Source: a virus
Length of the DNA: 64,000 bases
Direction: 5' to 3' (one strand)
Virus record (IMG/VR): IMGVR_UViG_3300037468_000262
Location: 6,657 to 70,656 of that record
Of this stretch, positions 430 to 50,615 are shown piece after piece. Within the stretch, counting starts at the first letter, position 1. Each line of letters opens with the position of its first letter. The position numbers were made by a program, and so were the translations under genes. The notes under the pieces are model-generated. The model made no database searches. It saw nothing but the letters and a program-made list of their open reading frames with translations, and was not told where the DNA came from.

Positions 430-643
430 CAAAATGAACAGAGTCTCAATTGCTATGTTAATACTTTGTCCCGTTTTGTTTGGCAGCGAGGCTTTATGCA
501 AGACTCAAGTACAAAGAAATGCGTTCAGGGCCAAAATGAGCTACCCGCTCAGACCGATAAAGTGCAGCCAACGCTGCTCCCAATTATGGGAACGTGATTG
601 AGCCTTCTGTTACTACAGAAAGGTTCGGTCTTTGCTGCTCAAA

Positions 644-715
644 GGGCGGTAAACCGCCCTGAACCGTTCGGTTTTCACCCTTGGCCTTTGCCCGCAAAGG
701 CGCTATAGTATTAGT
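644..715 (+). promoter_or_regulatory. Repeated promoter cassette copy 1 (TTGGCC-17-TATAGT)
   Basis: GGGCGGTAAACCGCCC palindrome, AACCGTTCGGTT, -35 at 681, spacer hairpin GCCTTTG/CAAAGGC, -10 at 704, ATG at 716. Confidence 0.8.
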
Positions 716-886
716 ATGGAAATTTTCGCTGTTATGATCGAGCTCTACGGGTTCGTTAATCGCTTCGACTTTGATGATGCTCGCTTGCGGCTTTTCGTCC
801 ACGAAAAAGATGCGCAGGCGTACCGTGAAGAGCTTGTGGATGAAGGCTGGGATGGCGTTCTCATTGAACGTCGACCGGTCCTCTAA
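716..886 (+). CDS. Small hypothetical protein, 56 aa (MEIFAVMIELYGFVNRFDFDD...), not in ORF track
   Basis: Manual translation; ATG 6 nt after the -10 box; flanked by 31-bp direct repeats. Confidence 0.7.
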   Translation: MEIFAVMIELYGFVNRFDFDDARLRLFVHEKDAQAYREELVDEGWDGVLIERRPVL

Positions 887-907
887 GGGCGGTCTTTGCT
901 GCTCAAA

Positions 908-973
908 GGGCGGTAAACCGACCCGAACTGTTCGGTTCGCTCCCTTGTTTCTACCCAGCAGAAACGCTAAGAT
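908..973 (+). promoter_or_regulatory. Repeated promoter cassette copy 2 (TTGTTT-17-TAAGAT)
   Basis: Same architecture; spacer hairpin GTTTCT/AGAAAC. Confidence 0.8.
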
Positions 974-1011
974 ATATACAGTTCAAAGAAACCACTTCAC
1001 AAACAAACAAA

Positions 1012-1839
1012 ATGCCCGCATTTGCAGTCACAGACAACCTCAACTGGGAAGTTGAGCAGCGTCCCGTCTTCTTCCCTGATTCCCAGGGCAATCCCGTCCG
1101 CTTTGAAGACCGGGTCGCTATTGTCCGCAGCGACAACGAGTTCCCCCTGGGTATCGTGTCTGAGGATTACGAAACGGTTCAGAACAAAGACCTGCTCGGT
1201 CTCATTAACCCCATGGTTGAAGAAGGCCTGCTGACCATTGAAAACATGGGTTATCTAGCCCACGGCGCCAAAGTGTTTGCCCAAGCCAGGATTAACCAAG
1301 AATTTCGTGTGATCGGCGAAGATTACAGAGCTTTCATCACCCTGCTTAACGGTCACGTGGGTAATGCCTCTGTGGCTATCGGTCCGGTGGCCACCCGCGT
1401 TATTTGCGGTAATACTTTCTCCATGGCATATTCCAACATTGGGGAAAAGTTCCGCCACTCTCTGGGTGTGAACGAGCGCATTCTTGAGAGCACCGCAGTG
1501 CTTGACTTTGTGAATAGCGCCATGAAGAAGTACTCCGAAAACGTTGAAACCATCGCCTCGGCGACTTGCACTTCCGCTCAGTTCCGCACCTTCCTGGAAG
1601 CAACCTACAAGAAGGAAGCTGACAAGATGCGCAATGTGAACGTTCTCAACGACCTGTTCTACAACGGCGCTGGCAACGAAGGTCATACCTTCTACGACGC
1701 CATGAATGCGGTCACGGACTTCAGCTCTAACCGCAGCCGAAAGACTTCCTCTGGCCGCTTCGGCTACGCCAACTTCGGTCAAGGTGCCTCCATCAACCAA
1801 CGGGCGATGCGAGTGGCCCTGGAGATGGCTGCTGTCTGA
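1012..1839 (+). CDS. DUF932 family protein
   Basis: LNWEV..., VRSD...LGIVS..Y..VQN, LLNGH.G, RVICGNT and NAVTDF motifs. Confidence 0.85.
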   Translation: MPAFAVTDNLNWEVEQRPVFFPDSQGNPVRFEDRVAIVRSDNEFPLGIVSEDYETVQNKDLLGLINPMVEEGLLTIENMGYLAHGAKVFAQARINQEFRVIGEDYRAFITLLNGHVGNASVAIGPVATRVICGNTFSMAYSNIGEKFRHSLGVNERILESTAVLDFVNSAMKKYSENVETIASATCTSAQFRTFLEATYKKEADKMRNVNVLNDLFYNGAGNEGHTFYDAMNAVTDFSSNRSRKTSSGRFGYANFGQGASINQRAMRVALEMAAV

Positions 1840-1845
1840 ATTCCC

Positions 1846-1880
1846 TGGGGGTTGACTTTAGGGTTGGCCCCCTTAGTTTC
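1846..1880 (+). terminator. Putative intrinsic terminator
   Basis: GGGGGTTGAC...GTTGGCCCCC hairpin followed by TTAGTTT after the DUF932 stop. Confidence 0.5.
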
Positions 1881-1945
1881 AGTCTGGGTACGGAGATTAA
1901 AACATTTCTCCTTACTTCATTAGAAAAATCACCGTAAACCTTAAC

Positions 1946-2386
1946 ATGGATTGTTCTAGTCTTAATCAACAAATTCAAGAAACCGAGAGACAACTTGAAA
2001 TCCTGAAGCAAAGGCTACTCAATTACAAAATTATTGAAGGAGCCGGAGTAGGAGATGAAATTGAGGACGGGAGCATCGTCTTGGCCAAAGGAGAAAATCA
2101 CGCTATCGTCGTTTGCCCCAAAGAAAGAGAGTTTCAATCTAATTGGGATGGTATGAAGTGTAGGGCCGGACGAACATTCGACCCCGAATGGTTCATTCCG
2201 TCAAAAGATCTGCTGCTACTGGCACACAAACGGATTCCGCAATTTTTCGGTAAGCATCGCTATTGGAGTTCATCAGAGTTTAATTTTCTTGACGCTCATA
2301 TAGTGAATGTTAACGAAGGGTTTACAAACGTCTTCCCTAAAAACACTGTGTGCAATGTACGTCCTTTTAATGTCTTAACGTTCTAA
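1946..2386 (+). CDS. DUF1566-like (C-type lectin fold) protein
   Basis: WFIPS..., YWSSSE and C-terminal K....VR pattern. Confidence 0.55.
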   Translation: MDCSSLNQQIQETERQLEILKQRLLNYKIIEGAGVGDEIEDGSIVLAKGENHAIVVCPKEREFQSNWDGMKCRAGRTFDPEWFIPSKDLLLLAHKRIPQFFGKHRYWSSSEFNFLDAHIVNVNEGFTNVFPKNTVCNVRPFNVLTF

Positions 2387-2389
2387 ACT

Positions 2390-3001
2390 ATGGATATTGA
2401 AATACTAGAAAAGTTCTGTTCGTCTTGGAGAACAAACTTCGAGAAACCCTTCGTCTACGGGAGAAAAACTTATTCAACTGATGGACACATTCTCCTCCGC
2501 ATCGAGGAGGTACTAGAAGGTGTTGAAGAAAATCCCGGCTTCCCTTACGATGGGATCAAGGATAGCTTTGAAGGACCCTTCTTGAACCCTTATCCCTTGG
2601 TCAACTATCGCACCGAGGAGAAGACAAAGATTTGTCCCGAGTGCAATGGCAAAGGATTCGTGTCGACTTGCCCCGAATGTGAGGGAAGTGGCGAGGTAGA
2701 ATGGGACTCCGGATGGAACTACTACTCCGCTGAATGTCAATCTTGTGAAGGCACAGGGACCCTCTCTGATGGGAATTCGGGAGATGAATGTGATAACTGC
2801 GGCGGGAAAGGAGTGGTTGCAGTGAGCGAGAAAGTTCAGATTGGCAACTCAACTTTCAGCAATCTCCTGATCAACAAACTTCTGAACAATTTGCCAGAAG
2901 GTCTTGAGATCCTCCCGAGTACGGAGATACGAAAGCCAGCACTCCTGCGTTGGAACGGGGGAGACGGTCTGCTTATGCCCCTTTTCGAATACTCTTACTA
3001 A
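2390..3001 (+). CDS. Protein with DnaJ-type zinc finger repeats
   Basis: Four CxxCxGxG repeats; N-terminal STDGHILL motif. Confidence 0.7.
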   Translation: MDIEILEKFCSSWRTNFEKPFVYGRKTYSTDGHILLRIEEVLEGVEENPGFPYDGIKDSFEGPFLNPYPLVNYRTEEKTKICPECNGKGFVSTCPECEGSGEVEWDSGWNYYSAECQSCEGTGTLSDGNSGDECDNCGGKGVVAVSEKVQIGNSTFSNLLINKLLNNLPEGLEILPSTEIRKPALLRWNGGDGLLMPLFEYSY

Positions 3002-3025
3002 ACCCACATTATCCACAAACACAAA

Positions 3026-3473
3026 ATGACAACTACCACTCTTTCCTTGACTGAAACCACTCGCCTTAACCTCCAGAACCTGGACATTGTATCTGGTCTC
3101 CCCCCCACTGCCTCACATTCCTGAGAGCCTAGATATTCTGCTCACCCCTGAACAACAAGAGGCTAACCTCCTGCACGTTGCTCTATGGATTGTAGAGCGT
3201 GACCAAGAAAACTTCAGAATGAGAGATTGGCACAAAAGATGGGCTGAATTACTTTTCAATATAAGTATCCGTGGTGAACAAGCCCATACTAATTGCGGTA
3301 CAACTCACTGCATTGCAGGATTCTCTCAAGTAATGGCCGGAAAAAGGGGGTTTACGGAAAGCCCTTGGAAAGCCGGAACATTTTTGCTTGGGCAGGAAGC
3401 CCGCTGCCACTTTTGGGACAGTGATGAAGCGGGTATGGACTTTTTGAAAGAAGTTATTACCAGGAATTCTTAA
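3026..3473 (+). CDS. Hypothetical protein with apparent +1 frameshift at C7 run (3100-3106)
   Basis: ATG 3026 frame reads MTTTTLSLTETTRLNLQNLDIVSGL. Removing one C joins it to the 3087 frame (PPLPHIPE...CGTTHCIAG). Confidence 0.55.
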
Positions 3474-3608
3474 AATGACTGTAAACCTCCGCCCCCAGAC
3501 ATTCCTGCAATCCGTACGATTCATCGAGAGGGGTGGCACCGTTTTATTGCCGAATGACTTAACCAGGGTCACAAACGCAAACATCCGCTTTCTACTAAAG
3601 AATCAAAA

Positions 3609-3899
3609 ATGCAAATTACATACAAGGCCCCAACTGCCATTGAACGCACAGTCGAACTTGACGAGTCCGAGTTACCATCCTTATATGCTGCAATCCGAGA
3701 TTGCTTCTTACAACGTCTCAGAACCTTTGGATTGGCGGACCCGTACCTACCCTTCGAAGAGGCAGCGATTGAAGTCTGCCGCAAAGTGGGTGTGGACCCG
3801 GCTAACCGCTTCGATGTAGTTGCGTTTTTCGAGGGTTTCCTCATTTGTAATGGGCCAGAAAATTCGGAGCAGGATGGCAATGAACACTCAAATAACTAG
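3609..3899 (+). CDS. Hypothetical protein
   Basis: ORF with A-rich upstream region, tightly packed with neighbours. Confidence 0.6.
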   Translation: MQITYKAPTAIERTVELDESELPSLYAAIRDCFLQRLRTFGLADPYLPFEEAAIEVCRKVGVDPANRFDVVAFFEGFLICNGPENSEQDGNEHSNN

Positions 3900-4320
3900 C
3901 TTAAGGGTAATTGAGAAGGTCACGAAATCCACGGGCAAGTTCCCGGACATCCCCTACCTAATAGCCAATATAACTTGGCAAGTTCCCACCGATAGTTTTT
4001 ACTTCTCAAGGTTTCTCCGAGACTCAAAGGAAGTTGTGGAAGAACTGGCGATTGATAACCCTTCATCTTATGGTGATACTCGGGGGAACCCACCAAAGTA
4101 CACAAAGGTTTGGACACCTCACGACCCAAAGTGGGAGTACCTGGAGAAGTTCCAGACTTTTTGGATGAAAACATGGGTTTCCGATTGTCCTGTAGTTAGG
4201 TCTGTGTTAGATGAACTGAAGCACTTTGAGCAAGCTGGGGAGTTCTCATCTGTATACAGGTTCCACAAAGAGTCTACTCTCCATACCCATCTGTCTACTT
4301 TGGACTCTTTTACGGATTAA
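3874..4320 (+). CDS. Hypothetical protein
   Basis: ORF 3820..4320; likely start ATG 3874 or 3880 after GGAGCAGG. Confidence 0.6.
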   Translation: MAMNTQITSLRVIEKVTKSTGKFPDIPYLIANITWQVPTDSFYFSRFLRDSKEVVEELAIDNPSSYGDTRGNPPKYTKVWTPHDPKWEYLEKFQTFWMKTWVSDCPVVRSVLDELKHFEQAGEFSSVYRFHKESTLHTHLSTLDSFTD

Positions 4321-4346
4321 ACAGGGTAAAATCAGCTAGGTCAACT

Positions 4347-4637
4347 ATGGAAAACTTGGATAAGAACAACGAAAGTCCAGAATGTTGCCGCCGCAGTTTC
4401 GGAGCCTCTATTAAGGATACCGCTGCCAGATTGCTGGCTGACCCCACAATTGCTCCTCGCCAAGTTGCGAAAGACAGGTTAGCGATTTGCGAAAGTAACG
4501 TTTGCGGGGCATTTAACGAAAAGAGTTCAACTTGTGAGCAATGTGGGTGCTACCTGCCATTAAAAACGACGATGGCGAACATGAGATGCCCACGAGATTA
4601 TTGGACCGAATGGAAGAGGGAGAAAAGTGAAGATTGA
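4347..4637 (+). CDS. Cys-rich protein (RL.IC..C / C..CGC / CP..W)
   Basis: Cys pattern; GGGTAAAAT motif upstream. Confidence 0.6.
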   Translation: MENLDKNNESPECCRRSFGASIKDTAARLLADPTIAPRQVAKDRLAICESNVCGAFNEKSSTCEQCGCYLPLKTTMANMRCPRDYWTEWKREKSED

Positions 4638-4914
4638 GCGACTGATTTACAAGGTTTGGCCTCCTGAGTTCGTAAAAGACTTCTTACAAGTAGACAACGA
4701 AGTGAGAACACCCTGGTTGCAAAGGCAACCTGGTTTCCTGAACAAAACTTCCGAGTTCAAGTCAAATGGTGAAGTTTCTATATTGATTTTCTGGAAAAGT
4801 GATTCAGACTGGTTCGAAGCTAAGAACAAAGTTCTCGAGTTGAAAAACGTAGAGCGTTTACTGAAACAACGCTCTCCGGGTTCTTTTAGACTCATAAGTT
4901 CACTTTCTATCTGA
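4627..4914 (+). CDS. TIGR03792-like cyanobacterial protein (ABM-like fold)
   Basis: IE.L..KV...F...D.E...PWLQRQPGFL.K motif. Confidence 0.65.
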   Translation: MKIERLIYKVWPPEFVKDFLQVDNEVRTPWLQRQPGFLNKTSEFKSNGEVSILIFWKSDSDWFEAKNKVLELKNVERLLKQRSPGSFRLISSLSI

Positions 4915-4959
4915 CCTTGAGTTTACTTAGTTTCGGCCTACGCTAAGCTAAATGTGAAT

Positions 4960-5031
4960 GCCCTGGTAGCTCAGTGGAAGAGCAGCGACCTTCTAAGTCG
5001 TCGGTCGGGGGTTCAAATCCCTCTCAGGGTG
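4960..5031 (+). tRNA. tRNA-Arg(TCT)
   Basis: Full cloverleaf: GCCCTGG/TCAGGGT acceptor, GCGAC-CTTCTAA-GTCGT anticodon arm, GGTTCAAATCC T-loop. Confidence 0.93.
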
Positions 5032-5071
5032 TCGGTTGCCTTGGCAACCTTATCAAACAACAGCATAACAA

Positions 5072-5224
5072 ATGGCAAACCTTTCACTGACGGCAAGAGC
5101 TGCGAGGATCTCCACCAAGAGTCCTTCCGGCGCTACCCTCCTTTTAAAGCTTAGCGAAGCCAAATCAAACTCCGAGATTCAAAGAGCCTTGGAAGAATAC
5201 GACCAGGTTTCAGCTTCAACCTGA
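5072..5224 (+). CDS. Small hypothetical protein, 50 aa (MANLSLTARAARISTK...), not in ORF track
   Basis: Manual translation; lies between two tRNAs; A/C-rich leader. Confidence 0.6.
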   Translation: MANLSLTARAARISTKSPSGATLLLKLSEAKSNSEIQRALEEYDQVSAST

Positions 5225-5272
5225 TAAACTCTAGGGTTGCCGATATCAAAGCAACCCTGACATTTAATTTTT

Positions 5273-5362
5273 GGGCGTGTGGTGTAAGGTAGCACAGGGT
5301 CCCTTATACAGACCTCTCCGGCAGATTACCGGCTAGTTAGGGTTCGATTCCCTACGCGCCTA
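5273..5362 (+). tRNA. tRNA-Ile(TAT) with long variable arm
   Basis: GGGCGTG/CGCGCCT acceptor, loop CTTATAC (anticodon 5305-5307), variable stem CCGG...CCGG, GGTTCGATTCC T-loop. Confidence 0.8.
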
Positions 5363-5453
5363 TTTTATATTGGGTAATAATGACCAGGGTTTAGGCCCTT
5401 CTCACTAACACCCTATTACCACTCTAAAAATAACAACAATTAAAACATAAAAA

Positions 5454-6812
5454 ATGGCAAACACCAAGCTAATTAAAGAACTAACTAATAAGTGGTCTCA
5501 GCCTGAAGGTATGCCAGGCAAAGGATACGAACTGGTGAGAGAGGAAAAAGGTCTCAGCCCTTGTGCCCAAAGTGAAGCGATTATGCTTTCCAAAGGCATA
5601 GGGGTTATGGACTTTCAGGCTCTTTGGATAGGGGGTCCGCAAAATGAAAAAAGTTTGAATTTCGGTGAGAAAACAAATCTTGATAAAATTACAGCTAAAG
5701 CCCTAGGAATAAGTGTAGTTCACTCTGTACTTTTACGGAGGTTTAATGATCTTTCAAGCCAAAGTCCGGCCATCGTACTCAACGAACCTGAGAAGGTCTT
5801 GGGCAGGAATTGGGATAAGGTCTTAGAATTTTGGCACTTTATTGACTCCCTTACTCAGGGGCAATGGAAAGAATTGCAGAAGGAACTGACTATCAATAAT
5901 GTAACAAAAGAATACGAATCGAAGAAGAGAGACTTAAAGCTTCTAACTGAAACACTAGATGTTATTATTCCGGACTTGTACTATACGATGGATTCTTCAA
6001 AGCCCTTAGACCCTGCCCTCATAGAGAGACAAACTGAAGAGGGGGTAGCTGAGATAGTCCCTGAGTTTAAAGTTTCCTACTCTAGCAACCAACATGCACC
6101 CCGTATCCTGCCTAAATCAACCAGAAATGTAATAGTGGTAGGTGACTATTCCCGTGCGTATTTCGGTTGGATTGCCGCTTCTGATTATGCTCGTTCCGAC
6201 ATTTTCCCAGTCGGACTCAGCTCAAGGGCACTGCAAGTCTTACTCGCTTGTGCAACGAACGAGATCCAAACCTTAAAGAAAGGTCAAAGTTATGAAGACC
6301 TTTACTTTTGTAAAATCATCGGTTACAATCCCACCAAAGGTAACACTCTTAGAAAAGTCAAGCGAAAAGCCCAAGAATACAAACAGTCTTTGTTGTACAA
6401 TCTAACCAGGTTATACCGCATTACGGATAATCTCATTTTCAGCAATTTGTCCAAAGACACCAATGTTAAGCAAGCTCCAACGAAAGAGATGGTTGAGGGT
6501 GTCTTGGACTTGACTGTAGATGACATAGTTAACGAACTGGCTTGGAAAAAGATTCGGGAAACATACGAAGTTGGTAAAGGGAGATTTTTCGGAACTTTAC
6601 GGATTCGAGTGCCTAAACTGGGACCTGACACAGAAGCAGATAAAAAGTTCTACGAACTGGTGAATGCCCTAAAGCAGGATTATTATGTACAGCCTTTGTC
6701 ATTTTGCGATGTGGACGATTCATCCTCAAAAGAAGGGGCTGAATGGGCCGTTACTTCCAAGAAAGAGAAGTCTAAGCCAAGATTCAACGCACCAACTGGT
6801 TACAAATCCTAA
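5454..6812 (+). CDS. Hypothetical protein (452 aa)
   Basis: Long ORF; no catalytic motif recognised. Confidence 0.75.
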   Translation: MANTKLIKELTNKWSQPEGMPGKGYELVREEKGLSPCAQSEAIMLSKGIGVMDFQALWIGGPQNEKSLNFGEKTNLDKITAKALGISVVHSVLLRRFNDLSSQSPAIVLNEPEKVLGRNWDKVLEFWHFIDSLTQGQWKELQKELTINNVTKEYESKKRDLKLLTETLDVIIPDLYYTMDSSKPLDPALIERQTEEGVAEIVPEFKVSYSSNQHAPRILPKSTRNVIVVGDYSRAYFGWIAASDYARSDIFPVGLSSRALQVLLACATNEIQTLKKGQSYEDLYFCKIIGYNPTKGNTLRKVKRKAQEYKQSLLYNLTRLYRITDNLIFSNLSKDTNVKQAPTKEMVEGVLDLTVDDIVNELAWKKIRETYEVGKGRFFGTLRIRVPKLGPDTEADKKFYELVNALKQDYYVQPLSFCDVDDSSSKEGAEWAVTSKKEKSKPRFNAPTGYKS

Positions 6813-6816
6813 GACA

Positions 6817-7125
6817 ATGTCACTAATCTCCAAGCAAGATAAAGAACTAGCCATCGAAGCTCTTGACTTTTACGCATCAGAGTTAATTTTAGAGAGAGAA
6901 TTTCTCACCTCAGAGGCAGATTCTGACCTTGGGTACGTCTCTGCAGGTTATGATTCTGATAAAAACGACATTTTTCTAGATAGGAGGGTTATATCAATAT
7001 TTGAGGTTGGCATTCATCACGAAAGCTCAGATGCTCGTACAGTCTTGTCTAACAAGATTCGAAGCGTTCAAACCTTGAGAAACTGGATCGCATTGGACCT
7101 TGCCAAGTCTAATTTGAAAGGTTAA
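6817..7125 (+). CDS. Hypothetical protein (MSLISKQDKELAIEALDFY...)
   Basis: Likely start ATG 6817 just after the upstream stop. Confidence 0.6.
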   Translation: MSLISKQDKELAIEALDFYASELILEREFLTSEADSDLGYVSAGYDSDKNDIFLDRRVISIFEVGIHHESSDARTVLSNKIRSVQTLRNWIALDLAKSNLKG

Positions 7126-7171
7126 TGCACTAAGGGTAAAATCGAGGGTAGGTCTACCCCTCCCTTCAGCC

Positions 7172-8062: not shown

Positions 8063-8122
8063 CAGCAGTTTCGAAAACTGCCGAGGGTGAAACCTCCGGG
8101 GGTTCGAATCCCTCTTCTTCCT
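8038..8122 (+). tRNA. tRNA-Ser(CGA)
   Basis: GGAAGAG/TTCTTCC acceptor, GCAGT-TTCGAAA-ACTGC anticodon arm, long variable arm, GGTTCGAATCC. Confidence 0.9.
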
Positions 8123-8191
8123 TTACGGTTTCCCCGAGGAATAATAATAAGTTCAGCGGTGCTGAAGAAACCGTCTTATACAAAATTTAAC

Positions 8192-8434
8192 ATGACAATT
8201 GAAAACAAAACAGAATTTGTGAACGAAGTAATTTCACGAGTGCTTAGCAATGCCCCTGTGAGCGAAGTTATGAGAGTTTATTCTCTATCAGTACAGGCAG
8301 CAATCGAAGAACTAGACGACGAAGGATTCCTTCAAGCAGTTCTTAACGCTGGGTTTACAGACCTGATTGAAAAGTATGTCGAACCCGAAGACTTCTTCGA
8401 AGAAGAAGATCTCGAGCTTGCAGAGGTAGTCTAA
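8192..8434 (+). CDS. Acidic hypothetical protein (MTIENKTEF...)
   Basis: Start moved to ATG 8192, downstream of the tRNA. Confidence 0.65.
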   Translation: MTIENKTEFVNEVISRVLSNAPVSEVMRVYSLSVQAAIEELDDEGFLQAVLNAGFTDLIEKYVEPEDFFEEEDLELAEVV

Positions 8435-8439
8435 AGAGA

Positions 8440-8502
8440 CGGTTAACCGAACGGAAGCCGACGGCTTCCACCCTTGTTTTCGCTGAGCGAAACCGCTATA
8501 GT
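8440..8502 (+). promoter_or_regulatory. Repeated promoter cassette copy 3 (TTGTTT-17-TATAGT)
   Basis: CGGTTAACCG, GGAAGCCGACGGCTTCC, spacer hairpin TTTCGCT/AGCGAAA. Confidence 0.85.
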
Positions 8503-8530
8503 AGGTTCATAAACGAGCCTACTTTTTCGT

Positions 8531-9028: not shown

Positions 9029-9076
9029 CATGGAAAAGCACTACGAAAATTTCAACCATCACGCATAAACCACTGA

Positions 9077-40994: not shown

Positions 40995-43900
40995 ATGATT
41001 GACATAAACCAAATCACCAAATCCATATGCAACGCAGTAACCAAAGCCCATTGCCTTTGGGAATGGGACAACGCCAACGACCCGCCTTGCCACCCAGACG
41101 ATGAAGGCTGGAAAGGGTGCAGTTCTTGCTATGCCAATCGCGAAATCCTTGCGGTGGCTTTTCATGTAGCTGCCGACCGTCTGATCCCTCATCCATCCAG
41201 AACCCCTTGGATTAACACCAACGACAAGGAACCTTACTTCAATGAAACCTTCGAGAATTACGAAGCCCTCGGAGAGCTAACAATCGTCGAACAACTAAGG
41301 CAAATTGCCTCCGAGCTGAGCCCAAAAATTTCGGGAGGGGGCGTAGCCCCCGACCAGGGACGGGCGCCGCAGGCGATACCCGGACCCAACCCAACCCGCC
41401 AAGACCCCCCAACCGGAATGACTACCCCCGTCTTCTTCACTACACGGCTGCCTGATCCCGTAGACGATTGCATGTCCCCCTTCATGGAAATCTGGGTGTT
41501 TTGCGATGACGGGAATTGGGAGTTAATGCGGTATGACCACCCAAATCTAGATTTCCGAGCCCACTATGGCCTCACTCACTGGTTACCCTGGGACAAAATC
41601 CCATACCCGTTAAACAATGACTGACAAAACCCCCCTACAACAACTCCAAGAGTGGCAAGAGCTTTCTGAGTTCTTTCATTCGTTGTACACAAAAGACTTA
41701 TTCGCACCGGAAAATTCCCTATCAGTGGCTGTAGACCATTGGATGGATCCTATGGCCTTTGACAAAAGTTTCACACTACGGGCGAGGTGGAAATTAAATG
41801 GAAAAGAAACCACTCGTGATATTACTTTTTCAATGTTTGACTCTGAAATGAGTAATGGAACTCCGGTAGTTGAAGCCGTAAAGAAACTTGCAGCGTCTAT
41901 TGCTGATGATGTAACTAAGGGTCTAGAAGAGGAAATGTTGCGTTTCCTAGTCCAGAATGACCAATACAATACTGTCCGCCCATTGATTATGTCTGAACTT
42001 TACAAGCAATGATTGCAACATTTCTTTTTCTCATGGTGTACACAAGCATTGTCGGTGCCACCGGATTCTTGATAGGGAGAGTATTATACCTTAATGAAAA
42101 ACAACTCCGAAATTTTCAGACTCGGCTCAGGACACACCCTGATGAAGGTTTTGCAGAAGACGCAGAGAATTTGCGTAGGGGTTGGGAGAGAGTTCTAGGG
42201 AATGTTAAGCAGCAAGGGAAATGATTGAGAAGATTTGCCTCAAGTGCCGTAACGTCGCTTCCGGAGCCGAAAACAGAACGTGTTGTGGCAAATCGGTTGC
42301 GTTCGACCCCTGTGAACACGGTAAACTCTTAATCTCCGGGGCAAACTCTTGGAATATGGTTATCAGCAGGTGGGGTGACCACCCCACTTTTGAAGCCGTC
42401 AGCGAAGACATGCTACGGGGGAATAGTGCAAGTGCTCCAGGCCATTTGAACGAGTTTATTCGGCGTCTTCTGAGCTATAAAGAAGCATTGCTAGAGCCGA
42501 GACCTATCAAGACAGAAGGGTTGCCGTACCCTGAAGATTGCCACCCCGAGGGTGGCTGGGCCTGGTTTGCAACTTTCGGATGTGACTGGACACAGGACAC
42601 CCCTCCCGAAGACATCTCTCTTGATAAAAGATGGAACGTTGACCCTGACACAGGAATGTTCAGATACAGCCATTGGCTCCCTTACTGGGCCATTCCATCA
42701 ACTGATACTTTATTAACATGAGCAAAAGTTGCGGATCCTGCGTCTACTATATTAAGTGGAAAAAAGATTCCCTTGTCAAAAAAGACGGTGGCAAAGGTGG
42801 GGAGCTAGCGTCCGGATTATGCGAGTTTTTAGATCGCAGAACCAAGCCAGATTGGGGCCACTCCTGTCTTCACTGGACCGGCAAACGCTACGACCGAAAC
42901 TTGCAAAAACAACTAACCAACAACGAAGTAGACAACGAAGACTAAACAAATGACCTTAACATGGCCTTAACACAACCTTCATACATCCGCTGCATACGGC
43001 ACACTAACGCAAACCTTTCGAAGCTGTCATGGTGTGGTCTTCCCTTAAGTAACTTTGACCTTCCTTTTGTAGACATTGACCATGCCGCCTATACTGTTAG
43101 GGACGAAGGTCGCATTGTTCCCTGCCCAGATTGCATCAATGTGATTACCTCACTATTTGACCCGAAAGCAAAATGACTGAACTCGACAAAATTCAGTTGG
43201 ATGGGACATTCACAAAAGAACAACTTTTAGAGCTGGCCTTTGCTATGGACGGTCAAAGTTGGGATCCTAGGCCCCATGGCATTTCCTACTCTGTAGACCC
43301 TACTCAATTCGAACATCCAGGTGGTCCCCCCGTGGTTTACACCGAGGAAATGGCTGCAGAAGACGATAAATTACTGGAAGATCTGGGTTCTGAAGGTCCA
43401 CTATCCGAATTCGGTCCAGACGATATGCCCTTAGGGTAGTTATAGTCCACATTATCCTCACAAACCCCGCAATGACTGACACAGAAAGAGCCTCAAAATT
43501 GTTGCAATTGCTAGAAGCAATGGACCCAGACATAGATTGGGCATCCGTACCTGAACTCACCCCAGAGCAAACACAACTTGTGACCGTATTAATCGAACAG
43601 CAAGTGGCATATGCTATGGACGAAGGAATGGCCCTTGCGGTTGAACTAATCCGTTTGAGCCCTCCGCATCTTTCCAAAGATGAAATTGCCGATCTGATTG
43701 AAAGTAGTATGCAGGACTCCAAATGACTGACAAGCAGCTCTACACTCTTTGTGGCACGATCTCATTGGCCGGGTCGTTCATCGCAAATTCCCCGTTACTT
43801 GGCATCATGGCGGTTATCTGGTTCGTTAGTGCGGTTGCCGAAAAGCGAGGCCCATGACTGACTCTTTGACTTAAGCAATCTACTCCTCACAACCCACCCA

Positions 43901-45696
43901 CCAACAATGACAGAACTCACAAAAGCAGACACTTTTCAACAGCGAATGTTTGAACGCATTCGTGAATCGATGGGAGAGCTTCTTTCAGAAGACGACTTGA
44001 AAGAACTCCTGGAAAGAACTATCGAAAAGTCGTTTTTCGAAGAACGAATTGTCCAATCTTCGAGTTATTACAGTAGCGCTCAAAAGAAACCGTCCCTATT
44101 CCAAGAACTTGTAACCGAACAAGTCCAACCCATGGTGGAAAAAGCGATCACCGTTTGGCTACAAGACAATTCAGAACAAGTCACCTCTACAATCGATGCC
44201 GTATTAAAAGATGGCCTACTGAGTGCTCTGTCAAAAGCCATCGATTACAAAATGCAAATTCCTGTCTTAAACCTCAGGACGGAAATTTCAAACAAACTCC
44301 TTTCTTAACCTTACAATTCCCATTTAGCTGAGTACCGTGAATAGAGACCCCGTAGTAATGACGAAACTCGTCTTCAATTCCCCCTACAAAACACGAATAG
44401 TCGCATACAACAACAAAAATAGACAACAAGTTGCAGTAATTACTGGCAATGCTGCAGAACCCGACGACACGACCCCCTTCATGACCGAATGGTTCTTCAA
44501 GGTTTCGGTACCGATTGAGGGTATGAATGGGTGGACAATCGAGTGCAATAACTGGCCGGGAATTTTAGCAGTCGCAACTCGGGAATGTTCCCGCCTTGGA
44601 AAATTAAGAAACCGCTTGGTTACAATCCCGATTGCCTTCTTAAGGGGCAACCTAAGCTAAACTGAAAATTCACACAAACGCTGGTAAAAAGAAATGGGAA
44701 CACGAGCAGACTTTTACGTTAGAAACGGAGACCAAGGGGAATGGCTTGGATCAATTGCATGGGATGGTTATGAGTGGGAAGAAGGGAATTTTCCACTAAC
44801 CGAAGCCAAAACTCCCGAAGACTTCCGAGCAGCCGTTCAAGACATTGCGAATGACCGCCAAGACTTCACCGACCCGAGCGAAGGGTGGCCTTGGCCATGG
44901 GATAACAGCCTAACTACTGACTACAGATACGTCTTCAATGAAGGGCTGGTAGAGGTTTATCGCTTCGGTCGCAAAAAACTTTCAGTCGATGGTGAAGAGG
45001 TGAATTATGCAGTCAACAAAGAAGAGTGGTTTCCCGATATGACCTCCATACAAAATGTCACTTTAGGGCCTCGGAGCGGGGTCATGCTATTTCACAGTGT
45101 GTGAGGACGGGAGCCGAATTTATAAGGTTCACACCACTGCCAACCCGATACAAGCATTGAAACTAACGGAATGATTATCTTTCTGCCAACATTTATACTC
45201 CTAACCATTGCGGCATTCTCTATAAACAGAGCAATCCAAAAGACACCTAAAGTACAACCCAAAGAGGGCACTGTTGAGGACCCGAAATCCCCAACCCTGC
45301 ACCAAGACCTCATTCAACTTAGTCGCATTCGGAACACATACGGTGAAGCTACTGCTACTCTGGTCTCTAAGCATCATGTAAACAATCGGGGGACTAATAC
45401 CGCCGAAAAGTCACAAACACTGAGAAACAACCGTACAAGTAATAACTACACAAGAGACGAAGATAACAATACTTTCATTTATGATTTGGACTACGCATTA
45501 GTCTCGGACTACGACCTTAACTCCAAACACCTTAGTCATTCTGATACCGGATCTAACCAAGATCATAGTTGTCATGACTCCGGACACAGCCATAGCAGCC
45601 ATAACTATGGAAGCAGCCACGATTACGGTGGTCATGATTGCGGGGGTCACGACTTTGGTGGCTTTGATTGTGGCAGCGATTGACTGACCTCCAGCA

Positions 45697-45764
45697 GGCG
45701 GCAAACCGCCCAGAAGCCTTCGGCTTCCCTTATTTCAACTCCGCAGAAACACTATAATTAGTAC
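45697..45764 (+). promoter_or_regulatory. Repeated promoter cassette (TTATTT-17-TATAAT)
   Basis: GGCGGCAAACCGCC, GAAGCCTTCGGCTTC, GCAGAAAC. Confidence 0.75.
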
Positions 45765-45792
45765 ATGAACCTAAACCCACGGAGGAATTTTG

Positions 45793-46077
45793 ATGGTAAA
45801 CGACGAACAACTACTTGAGGATTTCAACAGGGAAATCTACGCTGAAAATGGAGCTGACCCAGTTACGGTGGAGTACCTTATTAATACTCTTCGTACCATA
45901 AGAAAAAATAATAAAGAAGATGGCCCGAAATACAGGTCGGGGTATCAGGAGGGTTACGATTTCGGATATAAAATGGGGGTAGAGAAAGCTGAAGCCGATA
46001 CGATCATGTACGAAGACCTTCGTAAAATGACTATACAGGAACTTGCTAATTTAATCGGAGATGAAAATGCCTACTGA
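45793..46077 (+). CDS. Hypothetical protein
   Basis: SD GGAGG at 45781; GY.EGY..GY motif. Confidence 0.6.
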   Translation: MVNDEQLLEDFNREIYAENGADPVTVEYLINTLRTIRKNNKEDGPKYRSGYQEGYDFGYKMGVEKAEADTIMYEDLRKMTIQELANLIGDENAY

Positions 46078-46189
46078 ATCTCTCATAACTTTCAGTCCAT
46101 TTTCTCAAGCGGTTATGGACTCCCTGAACGAAGGCCACATGAGAGTTTCAGCTCTGTACCCTGACTTAAAAATTAAGTGTGGGACAAGG

Positions 46190-46262
46190 GGGCGGTTTAC
46201 CGCCCAGAATCTTTCGGTTCCCACCCCCTTTTCCAGCTAGGCAGAAACGCTATCATTAGTAT
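46190..46262 (+). promoter_or_regulatory. Repeated promoter cassette (TATCAT; ATG 6 nt downstream)
   Basis: GGGCGGTTTACCGCCC, TTCGGTTC, GCAGAAACGC. Confidence 0.75.
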
Positions 46263-47315
46263 ATGAACATGAAACCCACAAAGGCAACAATCCTAACTCT
46301 TACGGTTGCAATGCTGGTAACGGCATCTCCTGCTTTTGCCGCGTCTGCCGGTCGCATCAGTGGTGGCAGTTTCCGTAGCTCCCCTAGTTACAGCCGTCCA
46401 AGTTACAGCCGTCCAAGTTACAGCCGCCCCAGCTATAGCCGTCCCAGCCCTTCTCCGAGCTATAGCTATTCGCCACCGCGAGTGTACACTCCCCTGCCTA
46501 CCACTAGACCTTCTTACAACCCTCCAAGTCGGTCTAGCACGAACATTATCGTTGTGCCAGACTTGACTCCAAATGTTGCACCGGTTATCCCCTACTCCTC
46601 GCCTTCACAGGTAACCGCAGTTAGACAAGAGCCTGCTAATCCCGCGTTCTTTTTGACGCTGCTTGTTACCATGGGTGTGACTGCTATTGCAGTCTTTCTC
46701 TTGTTCGGAGGTTGGGAAGATTTCGTAGGACCCTGGTTAAGCTCTCAAAAAGAAAAGTTCAAGAAACTAACAGTAGTGCGGCAAAGAGTGGCCCTACTCG
46801 CTTCTGCCAAAGATATCCAAACCGATTTGATTCGGATGGCTGAACGGGGGAATACAGGTAGTTCCTACGGTCTTGCCAAGATCCTTCAAGAGACGACTCT
46901 TGCTCTTCTCCGCCACCCTGACAAAGTCGTGTACGCTTGGAGTGACAGCCACACAGTTTCCCCTGGTGGCGCAGAGATCCTCTTTAATCAGTTCTCGATG
47001 GAAGATCGTTCCCGAGCGTCTGAAGAAACTTTGACGAATGTGGACGGTCGTGTCTCAAAGAGTAAGGAGAAAGCACACGAAAAAACCCAAGGGAACGAAT
47101 ACATCCTTGTAAATGTTCTGGTGGTTACCAATGAGAATCTGAACCTGAAGCCATCCGACTCACAAGAAAACCTGAAGTCAAATCTGGTAGCCCTGGGCTC
47201 TATTTCTCATGAGGACCTGGTCGCCCTTGAGATTATCTGGCAACCGGAAGATGAATACGACGTTCTCTCGAAAGAGGAACTCTTGACCTTGTACCCCGAC
47301 TTGAACATCCTGTGA
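46263..47315 (+). CDS. DUF1517 family protein (cyanobacterial/plant FLAP1-like)
   Basis: Signal peptide, GRISGGSFR, SRPSY repeats, TM helix, GL..ILQETTLALLRHP, E.IWQP and L...YPDL. Confidence 0.85.
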   Translation: MNMKPTKATILTLTVAMLVTASPAFAASAGRISGGSFRSSPSYSRPSYSRPSYSRPSYSRPSPSPSYSYSPPRVYTPLPTTRPSYNPPSRSSTNIIVVPDLTPNVAPVIPYSSPSQVTAVRQEPANPAFFLTLLVTMGVTAIAVFLLFGGWEDFVGPWLSSQKEKFKKLTVVRQRVALLASAKDIQTDLIRMAERGNTGSSYGLAKILQETTLALLRHPDKVVYAWSDSHTVSPGGAEILFNQFSMEDRSRASEETLTNVDGRVSKSKEKAHEKTQGNEYILVNVLVVTNENLNLKPSDSQENLKSNLVALGSISHEDLVALEIIWQPEDEYDVLSKEELLTLYPDLNIL

Positions 47316-47322: not shown

Positions 47323-47395
47323 GGGGCGGTTTACCGCCCCACCCGGTTCGGTTCTCCGACTTGTTTCTACGGGGCAGAAGCGCCAGCATTAGTGC
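47323..47395 (+). promoter_or_regulatory. Repeated promoter cassette with degenerate -10 (CAGCAT)
   Basis: GGGGCGGTTTACCGCCCC, TTGTTT-17-CAGCAT-6-ATG. Confidence 0.65.
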
Positions 47396-47433
47396 ATGAG
47401 TGAGGGTGAAATCATACTTTCAAACAACGGAAG

Positions 47434-48240
47434 ATGGTTTGTTACACCTACGTTATAGTGTTCGAAGACAGTTTCTTTTACATAGGGGTTAGAAAGTGTC
47501 CCAAAAACCTCACCCCCTTTACTGACCTGTACTCAGGCTCCCCTGTGACACACAAGGAAAAGTGGGTGAACACAACTTTCAAAAAGAAAGTTATCAGTAT
47601 ACACGGCACATGGAAAGAAGCCTCTTTCAAGGAAATAGAACTATTGAACCACGTTAAATGGAACTCGAACCCTAGATGCCTAAATGAGAATAACGGGGGA
47701 TGCTTCTCAGAAGAAACATGCTCCAAGGCAGGGAAAATAGGAGGAAAAACTACTATTGACAAAATGAGAAATGACCCCGATTTCGCTAAGGCTCGTAACA
47801 AGAAATTGTCGGAAAGTTTAAAAAGAAGATACAGAGAAAACCCTGAAGTTTTAGAAAAACAAAGAGTATTGGTTTTGGAAGCTTCAATGAAGTCACTGAA
47901 GTCAAGAGAAAGTTTATTAAGAAACAATCCAGATTATTATAAGAATAACGGTCTTAAAATTTCTGAGGCTCTGAAGCTGAAAGCATCTGAAGACCCTTCT
48001 TTCAGGGAACAGCTGGCTATTAAAGCCAATAAAGCAAGTGAGACTTACCGTAAAATGCTTAAAGAGGACCCCGAGTTTAGAGAAAAAGTTAAAGCAGGTA
48101 GGGAAAGAGCTGCCCTAAAGATTAAAAATAGTGTTTGGATAACAAACGGGCAGAAAGACAGAAGAGTAAGTGCAGATCTTCCAATTCCCGACGGATTTAG
48201 GAGGGGCAGGTCCAACAACAAGAGAAGGAGTGAACAATGA
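47434..48240 (+). mobile_element. Free-standing GIY-YIG-type homing endonuclease
   Basis: YTY...FYIG, Y.GS, E..L, CLN.N, helical repeats and WITNG...G..RGR tail. Confidence 0.75.
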
Positions 48241-48872
48241 AGATAAGATTTATAGGAGACACCCATTGCCATTGGACTACCTACAAAAAACTCATTAAAG
48301 AGTGCGACCGCTCCTTGCAAGTTGGGGATTTTGGAGTCGGCTTCATAAACCCTTACACCGACAAACCCTACAGCAACCCACCCTATGACCACATGGCCAA
48401 AGGCGAGCACTTCTTCATTCGGGGTAACCACGATAATCCCGGTGTTTGCAAAAGGCACCCCTTCTGGGTGAAAGACGGTGGCTCAGCATTTGGTCGCGAT
48501 GACATCTTTTGTGTTGGTGGGGCTTTCTCGATTGACAAAGATCGACGGACCGAAAACTACGATTGGTGGCATGATGAGGAGTTGTCCTATGGTCAACTTT
48601 GCAACATCATGGACACTTACGAGCTTGTGAAACCCAAGATCGTTGTCACACACGAGTGCCCAGATTCGGTTATTTCTCGAGTTTGTCAAGAAAGGGGCAT
48701 GCACAAGTATGATATCCCGTCTGTGACTCGTAGATGTTTCGACAATATGCTCGAAATCCACAAACCGGATCTCTGGATTCATGGCCACTGGCACCTAAGT
48801 GCCTGGACTATCCACAAAGGGGTGCAATTCATAGCCCTAAATGAGCTGGAATACGTAGACCTCGATGTTTAA
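48237..48872 (+). CDS. Metallophosphoesterase
   Basis: GDTH, GDFG, GNHD, THECP and HGHWH motifs. Confidence 0.85.
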   Translation: MKIRFIGDTHCHWTTYKKLIKECDRSLQVGDFGVGFINPYTDKPYSNPPYDHMAKGEHFFIRGNHDNPGVCKRHPFWVKDGGSAFGRDDIFCVGGAFSIDKDRRTENYDWWHDEELSYGQLCNIMDTYELVKPKIVVTHECPDSVISRVCQERGMHKYDIPSVTRRCFDNMLEIHKPDLWIHGHWHLSAWTIHKGVQFIALNELEYVDLDV

Positions 48873-49752
48873 TCTTCCCTGTGAGGACTCCCCGGAATTG
48901 CTTCTTGGGGAGTTCGACTTTCAAACGTGTTATTACGAAGTGTGCTTTGAGACTATAGAGGAGCGGTACGGCTTATTTAATAACAAAATCAGAGAGGTGA
49001 ATAGGTATTACATTACAGCGAATCGTAAGACTACAGGGCTTAAGAAAGAAGTCAAGACTTTGAGATTCCATTTTACAGAACTTTAGAGAATGACTATATG
49101 TTTCGAGTGGTGGGTCAATGTAGCGGGATACAAACTGTCTTTTGGGATAATCCTACAGATCCGATCAATTTGCTGACTTTCTTAAAAGGACGTCTGGACG
49201 AAAATTCTCACGAAGACTTCGTAATTTTCAGTTCAAAAGACTTAGAATAGACAATGTCATACCCTTCTGTCTTGAAAATTCGCAGGTGTCCCCACTGCAG
49301 TACAAATTTGGTAGCAGCCGAAGTGCTTTTGCCTGAAACTTGTGAACCTGGCGCCTTCCACTCACGCTTACTTGGTATCCTCAACGACGGCGCAGTAACC
49401 GGTTGGAAATGCCCCGACTGCGAGCACACTCTCCCTTAGCCGAGAGACGCTTACCGTCTAAGGCATCGGCTAAACTGGCTGTAGCGTCTCACTCTTAAAT
49501 TGACCCCTTCTACTCTGGTATGGGTGACATTAATCGCGGTCTTCACTTATGCTGCCTCGCGAGACTCTAATGTCATTACATACCTTTTTCTACTGTCCGA
49601 GCGGCTACGTTCTTCCGTGCTGGGATCCAAATATTACTTAACCCAGAACCCAGATCACTTCTGGGTAAGGGGGAGAATCAGTGAAAACGCAGACAAAGAC
49701 GCTCGCAAACTCTCAAAAGAACTTGGTTTAGACAAAAACAAGGACTGGTACG

Positions 49753-50322
49753 ATGACAACGGTAATTAATCTTTTCGGTGGCTCAGGTTGTGGAAAGTCC
49801 ACCACCGCCGCTTTACTCTTCTCCCGAATGAAACTGGCCGGAATTCACGTAGAACTTGTAAGAGAATACGTGAAGTACTGGGCTTGGAACGACCGTAAGG
49901 TTCGAGAGTGGGACCAACTTTACTTGCTCGGTAAGCAGAGTGCATACGAAAGCATGCTTTACGGTAAAGTAGACTACATTGTAACCGACAGCCCGATCTT
50001 ACTCGCAGGGGTTTACCAGGAGTTTCGTTCCAATGGCAAAGATTCTTACGTGAGCAACGCTGCGCAAGCTTTCATGGCACACGCAGAAGAACAAGGTGTC
50101 ACTTACAAGAACTTTTTCCTGAAGCGCAACAAGCCCTTCGACCCGCGTGGCCGTTATGAAACAGAGGATCAAGCTAAAGAAGTTGACCGATTTGTTTACG
50201 ACTATTTGTGCAAGTATAGCGGGTTTAAGCCGATTGAAATTTCTGGTCCCGATGAGTACAGAGACGCGGAAATTCTGAGCTACCTCGGCGACATGGACTT
50301 TAAGGAGCCGCCCTCACTGTGA
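49753..50322 (+). CDS. P-loop NTPase (AAA_28/NadR kinase-like)
   Basis: INLFGGSGCGKST, E.VK..AW and TDSP.LL motifs. Confidence 0.75.
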   Translation: MTTVINLFGGSGCGKSTTAALLFSRMKLAGIHVELVREYVKYWAWNDRKVREWDQLYLLGKQSAYESMLYGKVDYIVTDSPILLAGVYQEFRSNGKDSYVSNAAQAFMAHAEEQGVTYKNFFLKRNKPFDPRGRYETEDQAKEVDRFVYDYLCKYSGFKPIEISGPDEYRDAEILSYLGDMDFKEPPSL

Positions 50323-50546
50323 GCTTAACTTACAGAGAACTCCCGGAGTCTCTACTCTTTCTTTCAGAGGAGGACTTGGACAAAACAGTCACGGTATTAA
50401 GAGAGGATGAAGAATTCCAAGCTGTTGTTCAGTTAGAATTTTCACCAAGTGATGACGATGTCTTAGACAGAGAACACCCCCACCTTCGACTTGACTACGT
50501 AAGTTTTCAGCTCACCGAATTGTGGCCGCCAGTGTAAGCCAGAGTT

Positions 50547-50615
50547 CGGTTTACCCTACCCCTCTTGGTTCGGCTTCCCCTTGTGTTTCCTCCGCAGAAG
50601 CGGTATACTATTAAT
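50547..50615 (+). promoter_or_regulatory. Repeated promoter cassette (TTGTGT-17-TATACT)
   Basis: CGGTTTACC, TTCGGCTTCCCC; ATG 6 nt after the -10 box. Confidence 0.7.

Follow-up and report, generated by a model that had tools for sequence, protein, structure and literature searches.

The DNA analyzed here, referred to as the window, is a 64 kb stretch corresponding to bases 6657–70656 of a 70,656-bp viral contig (IMG/VR record IMGVR_UViG_3300037468_000262). Its intergenic regions carry 15 copies of a cassette in which two hairpins precede a candidate promoter whose spacer can form a third hairpin. All copies are on the + strand, as are essentially all window genes, and a further copy, the 16th, precedes the window at contig positions 5411–5491. 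About 15 copies had been listed in a sequence-only reading of this DNA, and all of them are present on the + strand, at the positions given there or a few bases off. Because contig completeness is ∼25% (CheckV) and cassette-bearing relatives reach 277 and 279 kb, the contig is a fragment of a jumbo phage; one of the relatives has terminal repeats. A Pol-gamma-like family A DNA polymerase is encoded at 54919–57855 (Pfam) and matches cyanophage records only (11 of 11), the best being Synechococcus phage S-CBWM1 at 57% identity. The matching records belong to non-T4-type cyanophages, for example S-CBWM1, the S-TIM5 group, A-HIS1/2 and Mic1. Judged by its genes, this is an uncultured jumbo phage related to S-CBWM1, its nearest cultured relative, and a cyanobacterial host is likely. 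Further Pfam matches in the window include a GyrA-like topoisomerase subunit, a DUF1517 protein and an RNA ligase, together with a weak, below-threshold tail-sheath domain match in the open reading frame (ORF) that begins at 60359. A megablast search of window positions 18000–33000 against cultured phages gave zero matches.

From 5′ to 3′, a cassette consists of a first hairpin (HP1), a second hairpin (HP2), the bases (C)ACCC, a −35 element TTGnnn, a third hairpin (HP3), two bases and a −10 element TAnnnT. The HP1 core is CGG-N4-CCG (CGGTWAACCG in window copies) and is often extended to GGGCGG/CCGCCC or GTTCGG/CCGAAC. HP2 is a variable GC-rich stem with a 3-nt loop, and HP3 is the hairpin of the 17-nt spacer, its left arm overlapping the −35 element. 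Overall G+C content is 0.42–0.60, the upstream part being made up of GC-rich hairpins. Anchored on the −10 element, the −35/−10 spacing is 17 nt in 15/15 copies, with TTG in 11/15 and TAnnnT in 14/15, in agreement with the repeated intergenic −35/−10 promoter unit that had been proposed. The 40 identical nucleotides said to be shared by the copies at 8440, 30659 and 32310 were likewise found when the sequences were compared. When the sequence GGGCGGTWAACCG was searched for on both strands allowing ≤2 mismatches, 27 matches were obtained versus 1.58 expected, a number reached in 0/100 shuffles.

Two copies serve as exemplars; bit scores given here and below refer to the covariance model described later. 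Cassette 9 (30656–30721) is the structural exemplar, with the HP1 core at 30659–30668, HP2 at 30672–30688, CACCC, the −35 element TTGTTT at 30693–30698, HP3 GTTTCTGC-TCG-GCAGAAAC at 30695–30713 and the −10 element TATAGT at 30716–30721. Its leader is 24 nt long and ends at start codon 30746, which opens the RNA ligase gene. Cassette 7 (18899–18973; 83.4 bits) is the leaderless exemplar. Here the HP1 core (18902–18911), −35 element TTGTTT (18936–18941), perfect HP3 GTTTTCGC-GGA-GCGAAAAC (18938–18956) and −10 element TATAGT (18959–18964) are followed by ATG 18971, which opens a 201-codon SprT-like ORF.

The remaining copies are described in map order. Cassette 1 (644–718; HP1 core 647–656, −35 TTGGCC 681–686, −10 TATAGT 704–709; 72.7 bits) has HP3 arms GCCTTTG/CAAAGGC, and its ATG (716–718) opens a 56-codon ORF (716–886). 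Cassette 2 (908–973; HP1 core 911–920, −35 945–950, −10 TAAGAT 968–973; 63.4 bits) has a leader, the next start codon being that of a DUF932 gene at 1012. These two copies (626–985) form a tandem pair around the 56-codon ORF, with 31 identical nt on their left side, and contigs L045 and L063 each contain two identical cassettes 248 nt apart. In PeSLs (promoter-early stem-loops), the promoter stem-loop cassettes of T4-type phages, mini-circles originate from a tandem-pair arrangement of this kind. Cassette 3 (8437–8502; HP1 core 8440–8449, HP2 GGAAGCC-GAC-GGCTTCC 8453–8469, −35 8474–8479, −10 TATAGT 8497–8502; 83.8 bits) has a 28-nt leader before start codon 8531, and is kept in position in a close relative, G004, with 74/75 nt identical. 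A hairpin followed by a T-run (8500–8523) within this leader looks like an attenuator, and the related loci L022 and L051 have the same leader sequence. Cassette 4 (10966–11040; HP1 core 10969–10978, −35 TTGGCT 11003–11008, −10 TATAGT 11026–11031) ends in ATG 11038, which opens a 153-codon AAA_33 kinase-like ORF; its G004 orthologue is identical at 72/75 nt. Cassette 5 (14183–14257; HP1 core CGGACAACCG 14186–14195, −35 TTGCCC 14220–14225, −10 TAAGAT 14243–14248; 55 bits) has a poorly paired HP3, and ATG 14255 opens a 45-codon ORF. Cassette 6 (16315–16381; 32.2 bits) is degenerate, with HP1 GGGCGGCCAACCG, HP2 GAACCGTTCGGTTC, no TTG −35 element and −10 element TAAACT at 16376–16381; the start codon is at 16405. 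In cassette 8 (23678–23752; HP1 core CGGTGAACCG 23681–23690, −35 23715–23720, −10 TAAACT 23738–23743), the HP1 loop contains the TGA stop codon of the upstream Tet/JBP ORF (22508–23686), and ATG 23750 opens a 71-codon ORF. Similarly, the HP1 loop of cassette 10 (32307–32372; HP1 core 32310–32319, −35 32344–32349, perfect HP3, −10 TATACT 32367–32372) contains the TAA stop codon of the upstream ORF (31948–32316), and start codon 32397 opens an HD-domain ORF.

Cassette 11 (40936–40997), also degenerate, is without an HP1 core, contains CACCGTTCGGTTACCCGCCCC and has −10 element TACAAT at 40983–40988; ATG 40995 opens a 209-codon ORF. Cassette 12 (45696–45767; HP1 AGGCGGCAAACCGCCC, HP2 GAAGCCTTCGGCTTC, −35 TTATTT, −10 TATAAT 45753–45758; 54.2 bits) has an ATG at 45765 that opens 17 codons only (45765–45818), and a clear GGAGG precedes the ORF from 45790/45793. 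Cassette 13 (46190–46265; HP1 GGGCGGTTTACCGCCC, −10 TATCAT 46251–46256; 52.9 bits) provides ATG 46263 for the 350-codon DUF1517 ORF. Cassette 14 (47324–47398; HP1 GGGGCGGTTTACCGCCCC, −35 TTGTTT 47361–47366; 40.4 bits) has the atypical −10 element CAGCAT (47384–47389); its ATG 47396 opens 20 codons only (47396–47458), and the next long ORF begins at 47434. The short ORFs of cassettes 12 and 14 may be leaderless mini-ORFs or decayed starts. The last copy in the window, cassette 15 (50544–50618; HP1 CGGTTTACCC, −35 TTGTGT 50581–50586, −10 TATACT 50604–50609; 30.7 bits), carries ATG 50616, which opens an 88-codon ORF.

To collect copies from other viral contigs, a strict pattern was used that fixed the HP1 core, CCCTTG and TAnnnT, and left free the outer HP1 stem, HP2, HP3 and everything past the −10 element, including the ATG offset. 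This yielded 65 loci on 39 other contigs, ∼10 of which look like chance by eye (L007, L016, L026, L033, L034, L042, L057, L061, L062 and L064). Distinct copies of the dominant 63-nt form numbered 50; other lengths were left out. After removal of the contig copy outside the window and of the chance-like L042 and L062, 47 copies (9 window and 38 foreign) made up a gapless alignment, from which a covariance model was built. On this contig the model finds 15 matches, comprising the 16th copy upstream and every window copy but one (14/15, E ≤ 1e-4); the copy it misses is the degenerate one at 40936, and it finds none on the minus strand. The large relatives G001, G002 and G003 contain 64, 12 and 35 matches, and S-CBWM1 contains 6 weak ones (19–27 bits). 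A second set was assembled from 91 model matches (14 from the window, 44 from G001 and 33 from G003), in an alignment fitted to the model. The −10 elements among these are mostly TATAGT (36), TATGAT (13), TATAAT (13) and TATACT (11). The cassette is common to a clade of large cyanophage-like viruses and is strongly non-random.

Sigma-70-type polymerases usually initiate ∼7 nt after the −10 element. An ATG, which the sequence-only reading did not remark on, lies exactly 6 nt past this element in 10/15 window copies, the start codon of the other five being 23–38 nt past it. The same offset is found in 33/47 copies of the gapless alignment (28/38 foreign), any other offset occurring in at most three copies, and in 49/91 model matches (window 9/14, G001 14/44, G003 26/33). 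Of the ORFs opened by these 49 ATGs, 42 are ≥40 codons long and 36 are ≥60 codons long; because a random ATG opens such an ORF in ∼6% of cases by our own estimate, they are probably real start codons. The 3′ end of the cassettes has a start codon but no Shine-Dalgarno sequence, and Shine-Dalgarno-like words were seen upstream of only 20/107 ORFs. Since the base 7 nt past the −10 element is the A of the ATG, leaderless mRNAs are predicted, and the putative leaderless start in about half of the cassettes is well supported by these position statistics. A role for HP3 in serving the leaderless start was considered and ruled out, since presence of a leader goes with slightly better HP3 pairing (6.57 vs 6.00 pairs, p = 0.02).

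The stems had been claimed to covary, and the alignments bear this out. Across the 47 copies, 74.2% of cells in the three named helices are paired, versus 35.5–47.3% when the 3′ partner is slid. Both-sided changes number 87 cells versus 43.6 in shuffles, and 0/500 shuffles reach the observed score; note that this control ignores the relatedness of copies. HP3 is 82% paired among the 91 copies and well paired in 47/84 ungapped copies. The well-paired copies have 11 distinct arm sequences, as expected from the earlier description of the spacer as a hairpin whose sequence changes. HP2 is only 44–65% paired in a fixed register because its center shifts by one base between types; folded alone, it gives a stable hairpin in 63/91 copies, with 50 distinct sequences. 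Core pairs of HP1 are kept in 74–84 of ∼85 copies, while its outer pairs fail in 37 and 45 copies. Redundancy between HP1 and HP2 was considered, but their pairing is only marginally anticorrelated (rho −0.20, p = 0.054). Folded one by one, cassette segments are more stable than shuffles (mean z −2.0 to −2.5). RNAalifold applied to the gapless alignment returns the three invariant HP1 core pairs alone, because hairpin registers shift between copies.

Cassettes are placed and oriented with respect to genes. They begin 0–40 nt past the preceding ORF in 10/15 cases and overlap its end in three more; for two of these three, the HP1 loop contains the stop codon. In G001, which has genes on both strands, the cassette strand is that of the next long ORF in 44/44 cases. 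No cassette occurs past 50.6 kb, in the part of the window with the topoisomerase, polymerase and tail genes, and G001 is without cassettes between ∼170 and 268 kb. Of 77 further window ORFs, 73 have no Pfam match, and the cassette-bearing stretch is an ORFan-rich region of the early type.

PeSLs are intergenic cassettes that combine a sigma-70-like early promoter with a stem-loop (Arbiol et al. 2010, PMC2839356; Comeau et al. 2014, PMC4122927). With a probability of about 0.6, we read the cassette as a PeSL-type unit in which an insulating terminator or attenuator is joined to a promoter with a built-in leaderless start, read by the sigma-70-type RNA polymerase of the host. The promoter part of this reading is strong on sequence grounds; for the stems we infer a role in termination or transcript stability. 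In the proposed scheme, the cassette begins at or just past the stop codon of the upstream gene, and host RNA polymerase with its housekeeping sigma factor would start early transcription 7 nt past the −10 element. In about half of the copies the initiating base would be the A of the start codon, giving a leaderless mRNA for which no Shine-Dalgarno sequence is needed. The three stem-loops would be transcribed only by polymerases arriving from upstream, and on the upstream transcript they would act as attenuators or weak terminators and protect its 3′ end, so that gene modules are insulated from one another. Given their mutual similarity, the cassettes might double as recombination linkers between modules.

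The same palindromes could instead be dyad-symmetric sites on double-stranded DNA for regulatory proteins. HP3, with its 8-3-8 layout at approximately −33 to −15, would be the operator of a phage repressor that shuts off early promoters, and the CGG-N4-CCG core of HP1, ∼60–69 bp upstream of the start, would be the site of an activator or other factor. The HP1 core is near-invariant even where the outer stem cannot pair, one HP3 arm dominates (GTTTCTGC in 27/47 well-paired copies), all stems have operator-like centers of 3–4 nt, and a location over the −35 element and spacer is typical of repressors. Binding by one protein would not lead one to expect that both HP3 arms change together (one pair is CG in 41 copies and UA in 33, the next UA in 52 and CG in 14) or that there are 11 paired solutions. 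The hairpin register also shifts by half or a full step between copies, and the centers of HP1 (4 nt) and HP3 (3 nt) are free to vary. A scan of 113 window ORFs (36 + 77) detected no helix-turn-helix or ribbon-helix-helix protein; most of these are ORFans, and ∼25% of the genome is present. Taken together, we consider the operator explanation unlikely.

Pairing is kept upstream of +1, in a segment absent from the cassette's own transcript, and this would also fit hairpins formed by the DNA itself. The spacer palindrome, and perhaps those upstream of it, would then form a cruciform or fold on transient single-stranded DNA and gate promoter recognition. Early transcription would depend on supercoiling or on the state of genome entry, and the cassette would correspond, in sigma-70-type form, to the hairpin promoters of coliphage N4, whose hairpins its 3-nt loops resemble. 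The exemplar cassette 9 folds more significantly as DNA (−16.3 kcal/mol, z −2.48) than as RNA (−27.9 kcal/mol, z −1.78), and the HP1 loops TAAA and TTTA are reverse complementary, a pattern reminiscent of loop inversion, which is associated with DNA hairpins. Arms of 6–8 bp are short for cruciform extrusion, however, canonical −35 and −10 elements at 17 nt require B-form DNA, and some orthologues have lost HP3 but kept the promoter boxes. PeSL stem-loops at the same position have been shown to terminate or attenuate transcription (PMC2839356). DNA-level hairpins that gate promoter recognition are rated highly improbable, and we find it very improbable that selection on the stems acts at the DNA level through a spacer hairpin or cruciform that gates host polymerase on an injected, probably hypermodified genome.

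Several observations weigh against the terminator-promoter unit that we prefer. On the promoter side, the −35 element is weak, consisting of TTG only, and the two small sigma-family proteins found in the relatives (see below) could in principle read these promoters in place of the host factor. Leaderless mRNAs are rare in cyanobacteria: 19 are given for S. elongatus UTEX 2973 (PMC6091082) and 51 are cited for Synechocystis (PMC9938897), the latter source also demonstrating that translation of leaderless mRNAs is possible in Anabaena.

On the side of the stems, HP3 pairing is not always kept, as the count of 47/84 indicates, and the G004 orthologue of the cassette at 18899 keeps 5/8 HP3 pairs (counted on the alignment). 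Even in copies where they cannot pair, the HP1 core and a CGGYTTCC-ACCC block retain their sequence, which suggests that sequence as well as structure is recognized there. The numbers of G·T and A·C mismatches, compared as a test for sense-strand RNA, are 35 and 19 in HP3 and 26 and 20 in HP2, and the outer HP1 stem has 3 and 17. By folding energy, the + strand is the better one for HP3 (35 vs 11 copies, p = 0.001) and the − strand for HP2 (27 vs 13). The sense-strand RNA signature is thus mixed and inconsistent across HP1, HP2 and HP3, a point that also counts in favor of operators. The cassette hairpins are without a canonical U-tract, and a generic terminator scan of window positions 1–20000, which hold seven cassettes, flagged a single cassette hairpin (8453–8469). 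Canonical sites of hairpin plus T-run were found elsewhere, for example at 1847–1872 and 19575–19590. On these results, the stems would be at best weak terminators, attenuators or 3′-end protectors.

Conservation at the cassettes was assessed in G004, which is 85–92% identical to, and syntenic with, window positions 1921–28559. Orthologous cassettes are 89.8% identical and their flanks 88.2%, so that the cassettes are not more conserved than their surroundings, and of ∼8 indels or replacements only one adjoins a cassette (a left-end gene swap downstream of the cassette at 908); both results tell against the functional unit with its linker role. One of the insertions away from cassettes contains a NUMOD3 homing-endonuclease-like ORF (12290–12943), with 735 nt here versus 46 nt in G004.

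A further explanation is that the cassette is a selfish or neutral repeat, a recombination linker spread by homologous exchange and gene conversion, in which only the promoter boxes are functional. Palindrome symmetry would be kept by template-switch (quasi-palindrome) correction and not by structural selection. Three copies share their 40 identical nt upstream of unrelated genes, the cassette is the sole DNA similar to window positions 1–20000 in four other contigs, and small ORFs are bracketed by tandem pairs both here (644/908) and in L045/L063. Some orthologous cassettes have diverged further than the surrounding DNA, which suggests conversion; the one at 23681 is identical to its G004 counterpart at 56/75 nt. 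Two of nine contig joints link two cassettes (45689 to 46241 and, in register, 47374 to 50594), but their short sides are 34 and 26 letters long and they were flagged as unreliable, since repeats cause such mappings. Within the syntenic part, 6/6 cassettes are in place in G004 with most indels away from them, polarity with genes is strict (44/44), and stems have been re-solved in many ways across distant genomes, all of which speaks against a neutral repeat. We regard it as improbable. When contigs were mapped, many of them ended at cassettes, which is what a repeat should cause, and loose ends at 30659 and 32310 were rejected as cross-mapping from the copy at 8440. A well-supported joint (sides of 255 letters) was found at 49267–49448, where 180 nt are replaced by the same 20 letters in contigs of two independent runs (X2 and X4); this is a population variant with no cassette association.

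The terminator-promoter reading draws on the likeness to PeSLs. Like these, the cassettes contain a sigma-70-like promoter (−35, 17 nt, −10; matched by sequence), are intergenic, cluster in early regions rich in ORFans, seldom occur in structural modules, and have copies that may be similar enough to recombine. In PeSLs, the stem-loop is found between the promoter boxes or over them, Arbiol et al. 2010 (PMC2839356) already describing stem-loops between −35 and −10, and in reporter tests these stem-loops terminated or attenuated transcription (PMC2839356, PMC4122927). In our cassettes, HP3 lies between the boxes and over the −35 element, with HP1 and HP2 upstream. The resemblance to PeSLs noted in the sequence-only reading therefore stands; its remark that the architecture differs was overstated, because a stem-loop in the spacer is already described for PeSLs by Arbiol et al. 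and the spacer hairpin is not new. What appears new is the lineage, the GC-rich triple-hairpin layout, a missing Shine-Dalgarno sequence and a start codon placed at the predicted +1. Specifically, there are three stem-loops here versus one in PeSLs, the upstream part is GC-rich versus AT-rich, the cassettes are without a Shine-Dalgarno sequence, and roughly half of them place an ATG at the predicted +1. The lineage is not T4-type as judged by its Pol-gamma-like family A polymerase (T4 core genes were not searched for), and indels lie mostly away from cassettes in the one close comparison, that with G004.

In S-CBWM1 (NC_048106.1), the same HP1, GGGCGG-NAAA-CCGCCC, occurs right after gene ends and is followed by −35, 17 nt and −10, and the site at 12848 has the full three-part form with an ATG 6 nt past the −10 element. 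S-CBWM1 differs in that several intergenic sites usually have a single hairpin abutting a −35 element TTTACA, with −10 elements TAAGCT or TAAAGT. The TTT after HP1 can be both a terminator tail and the start of the −35 element, and most copies have leaders with a short hairpin. No description of these cassettes, including those of S-CBWM1, was found in the literature searched, which did not extend to the original S-CBWM1 paper or the PeSL supplements, where similar motifs might already appear.

Promoters of leaderless genes in Actinobacteria and Deinococcus, and lambda cI transcribed from PRM, have a TAnnnT −10 element 6–7 nt upstream of the start codon. The likeness is a transcript that begins at the A of AUG; what differs is that in this phage the arrangement forms part of a repeated cassette, in a host group with few leaderless mRNAs. 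Early promoters of N4 consist of a short stem with a 3-nt loop and are read by the virion RNA polymerase without −35 and −10 boxes. Both have a short 3-nt-loop stem inside an early-gene promoter region, but the boxes here are canonical for sigma-70-type enzymes. Intrinsic terminators and the inverted repeats that stabilize the 3′ ends of mRNAs, such as chloroplast and cyanobacterial 3′ stem-loops and repetitive extragenic palindromic (REP) elements, are likewise GC-rich stem-loops right after stop codons, and the hairpins of this phage differ from them in having no U-tract behind.

If the terminator-promoter reading holds, composite cassettes of this type, so far known in T4-type phages, would also exist in another lineage, that of very large cyanophage-like viruses. 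This would suggest that phages with many small accessory genes generally make use of such portable expression units. With an ATG at the predicted +1 in roughly half of the cassettes, early genes would be expressed systematically from leaderless mRNAs, which are rare in the host group. Start-site maps of two jumbo phages, phiKZ (PMC8244752) and AR9 (PMC5312081), contain no leaderless transcripts, the untranslated regions of AR9 being 26–491 nt long. As a compact unit, the cassette is moreover a candidate part for cyanobacterial gene expression. Were DNA-level gating true instead, the cassette would be a structure-gated sigma-70-type promoter, a counterpart of the N4 hairpin, and each copy a self-contained, movable leaderless unit. 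Predictions can be tested at the bench because cultured S-CBWM1 (grown on Synechococcus CBW1002) carries a homologous cassette.

Each of the complete relatives (G001 and G002) encodes two small sigma-70-family ORFs outside the cassette-rich regions. In G001 these are 204 and 242 amino acids long (locus L085, G001:250500–261500, positions 1707–2321 and 8215–8943), with only region 2 detected, and a diverged cassette-like promoter precedes one of the phage sigma genes. This fits, but does not prove, an early-to-late cascade in which early transcription by the host enzyme is followed by a phage sigma factor. A class I ribonucleotide reductase lies between the two sigma ORFs and contains an intein with an HNH motif (L085 5295–8264). 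A Pfam RNA_pol search for a single-subunit polymerase found nothing in four records, the control genomes being silent too.

A probable DNA hypermodification gene set occupies window positions 17351–32316. It comprises a dTMP kinase (17351–18025), two Tet/JBP oxygenases (20024–21505 and 22508–23686), an R2K ATP-grasp protein (24953–25729), an amidotransferase (25729–26388), an amino-acid:DNA transferase (28515–29594) and a nucleoside 2-deoxyribosyltransferase-like protein (31405–31947). T residues of virion DNA in the cassette promoters may therefore be modified. A scan of the window with Rfam 15 at the gathering score returned two tRNAs and a glutamine riboswitch alone, with no cassette match. 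The tRNAs at 4959–5033 and 8038–8122 are confirmed by the Rfam tRNA model, which scores below the gathering score at a 92-nt tRNA-Ile(TAT) called by ARAGORN at 5272–5363. The riboswitch aptamer (RF01739; 41.3 bits versus a gathering score of 35) lies on the + strand in an intergenic gap at 15227–15277 and belongs to a class typical of cyanobacteria and their phages. A 39-codon ORF (15345–15464) begins ∼70 nt downstream of it.

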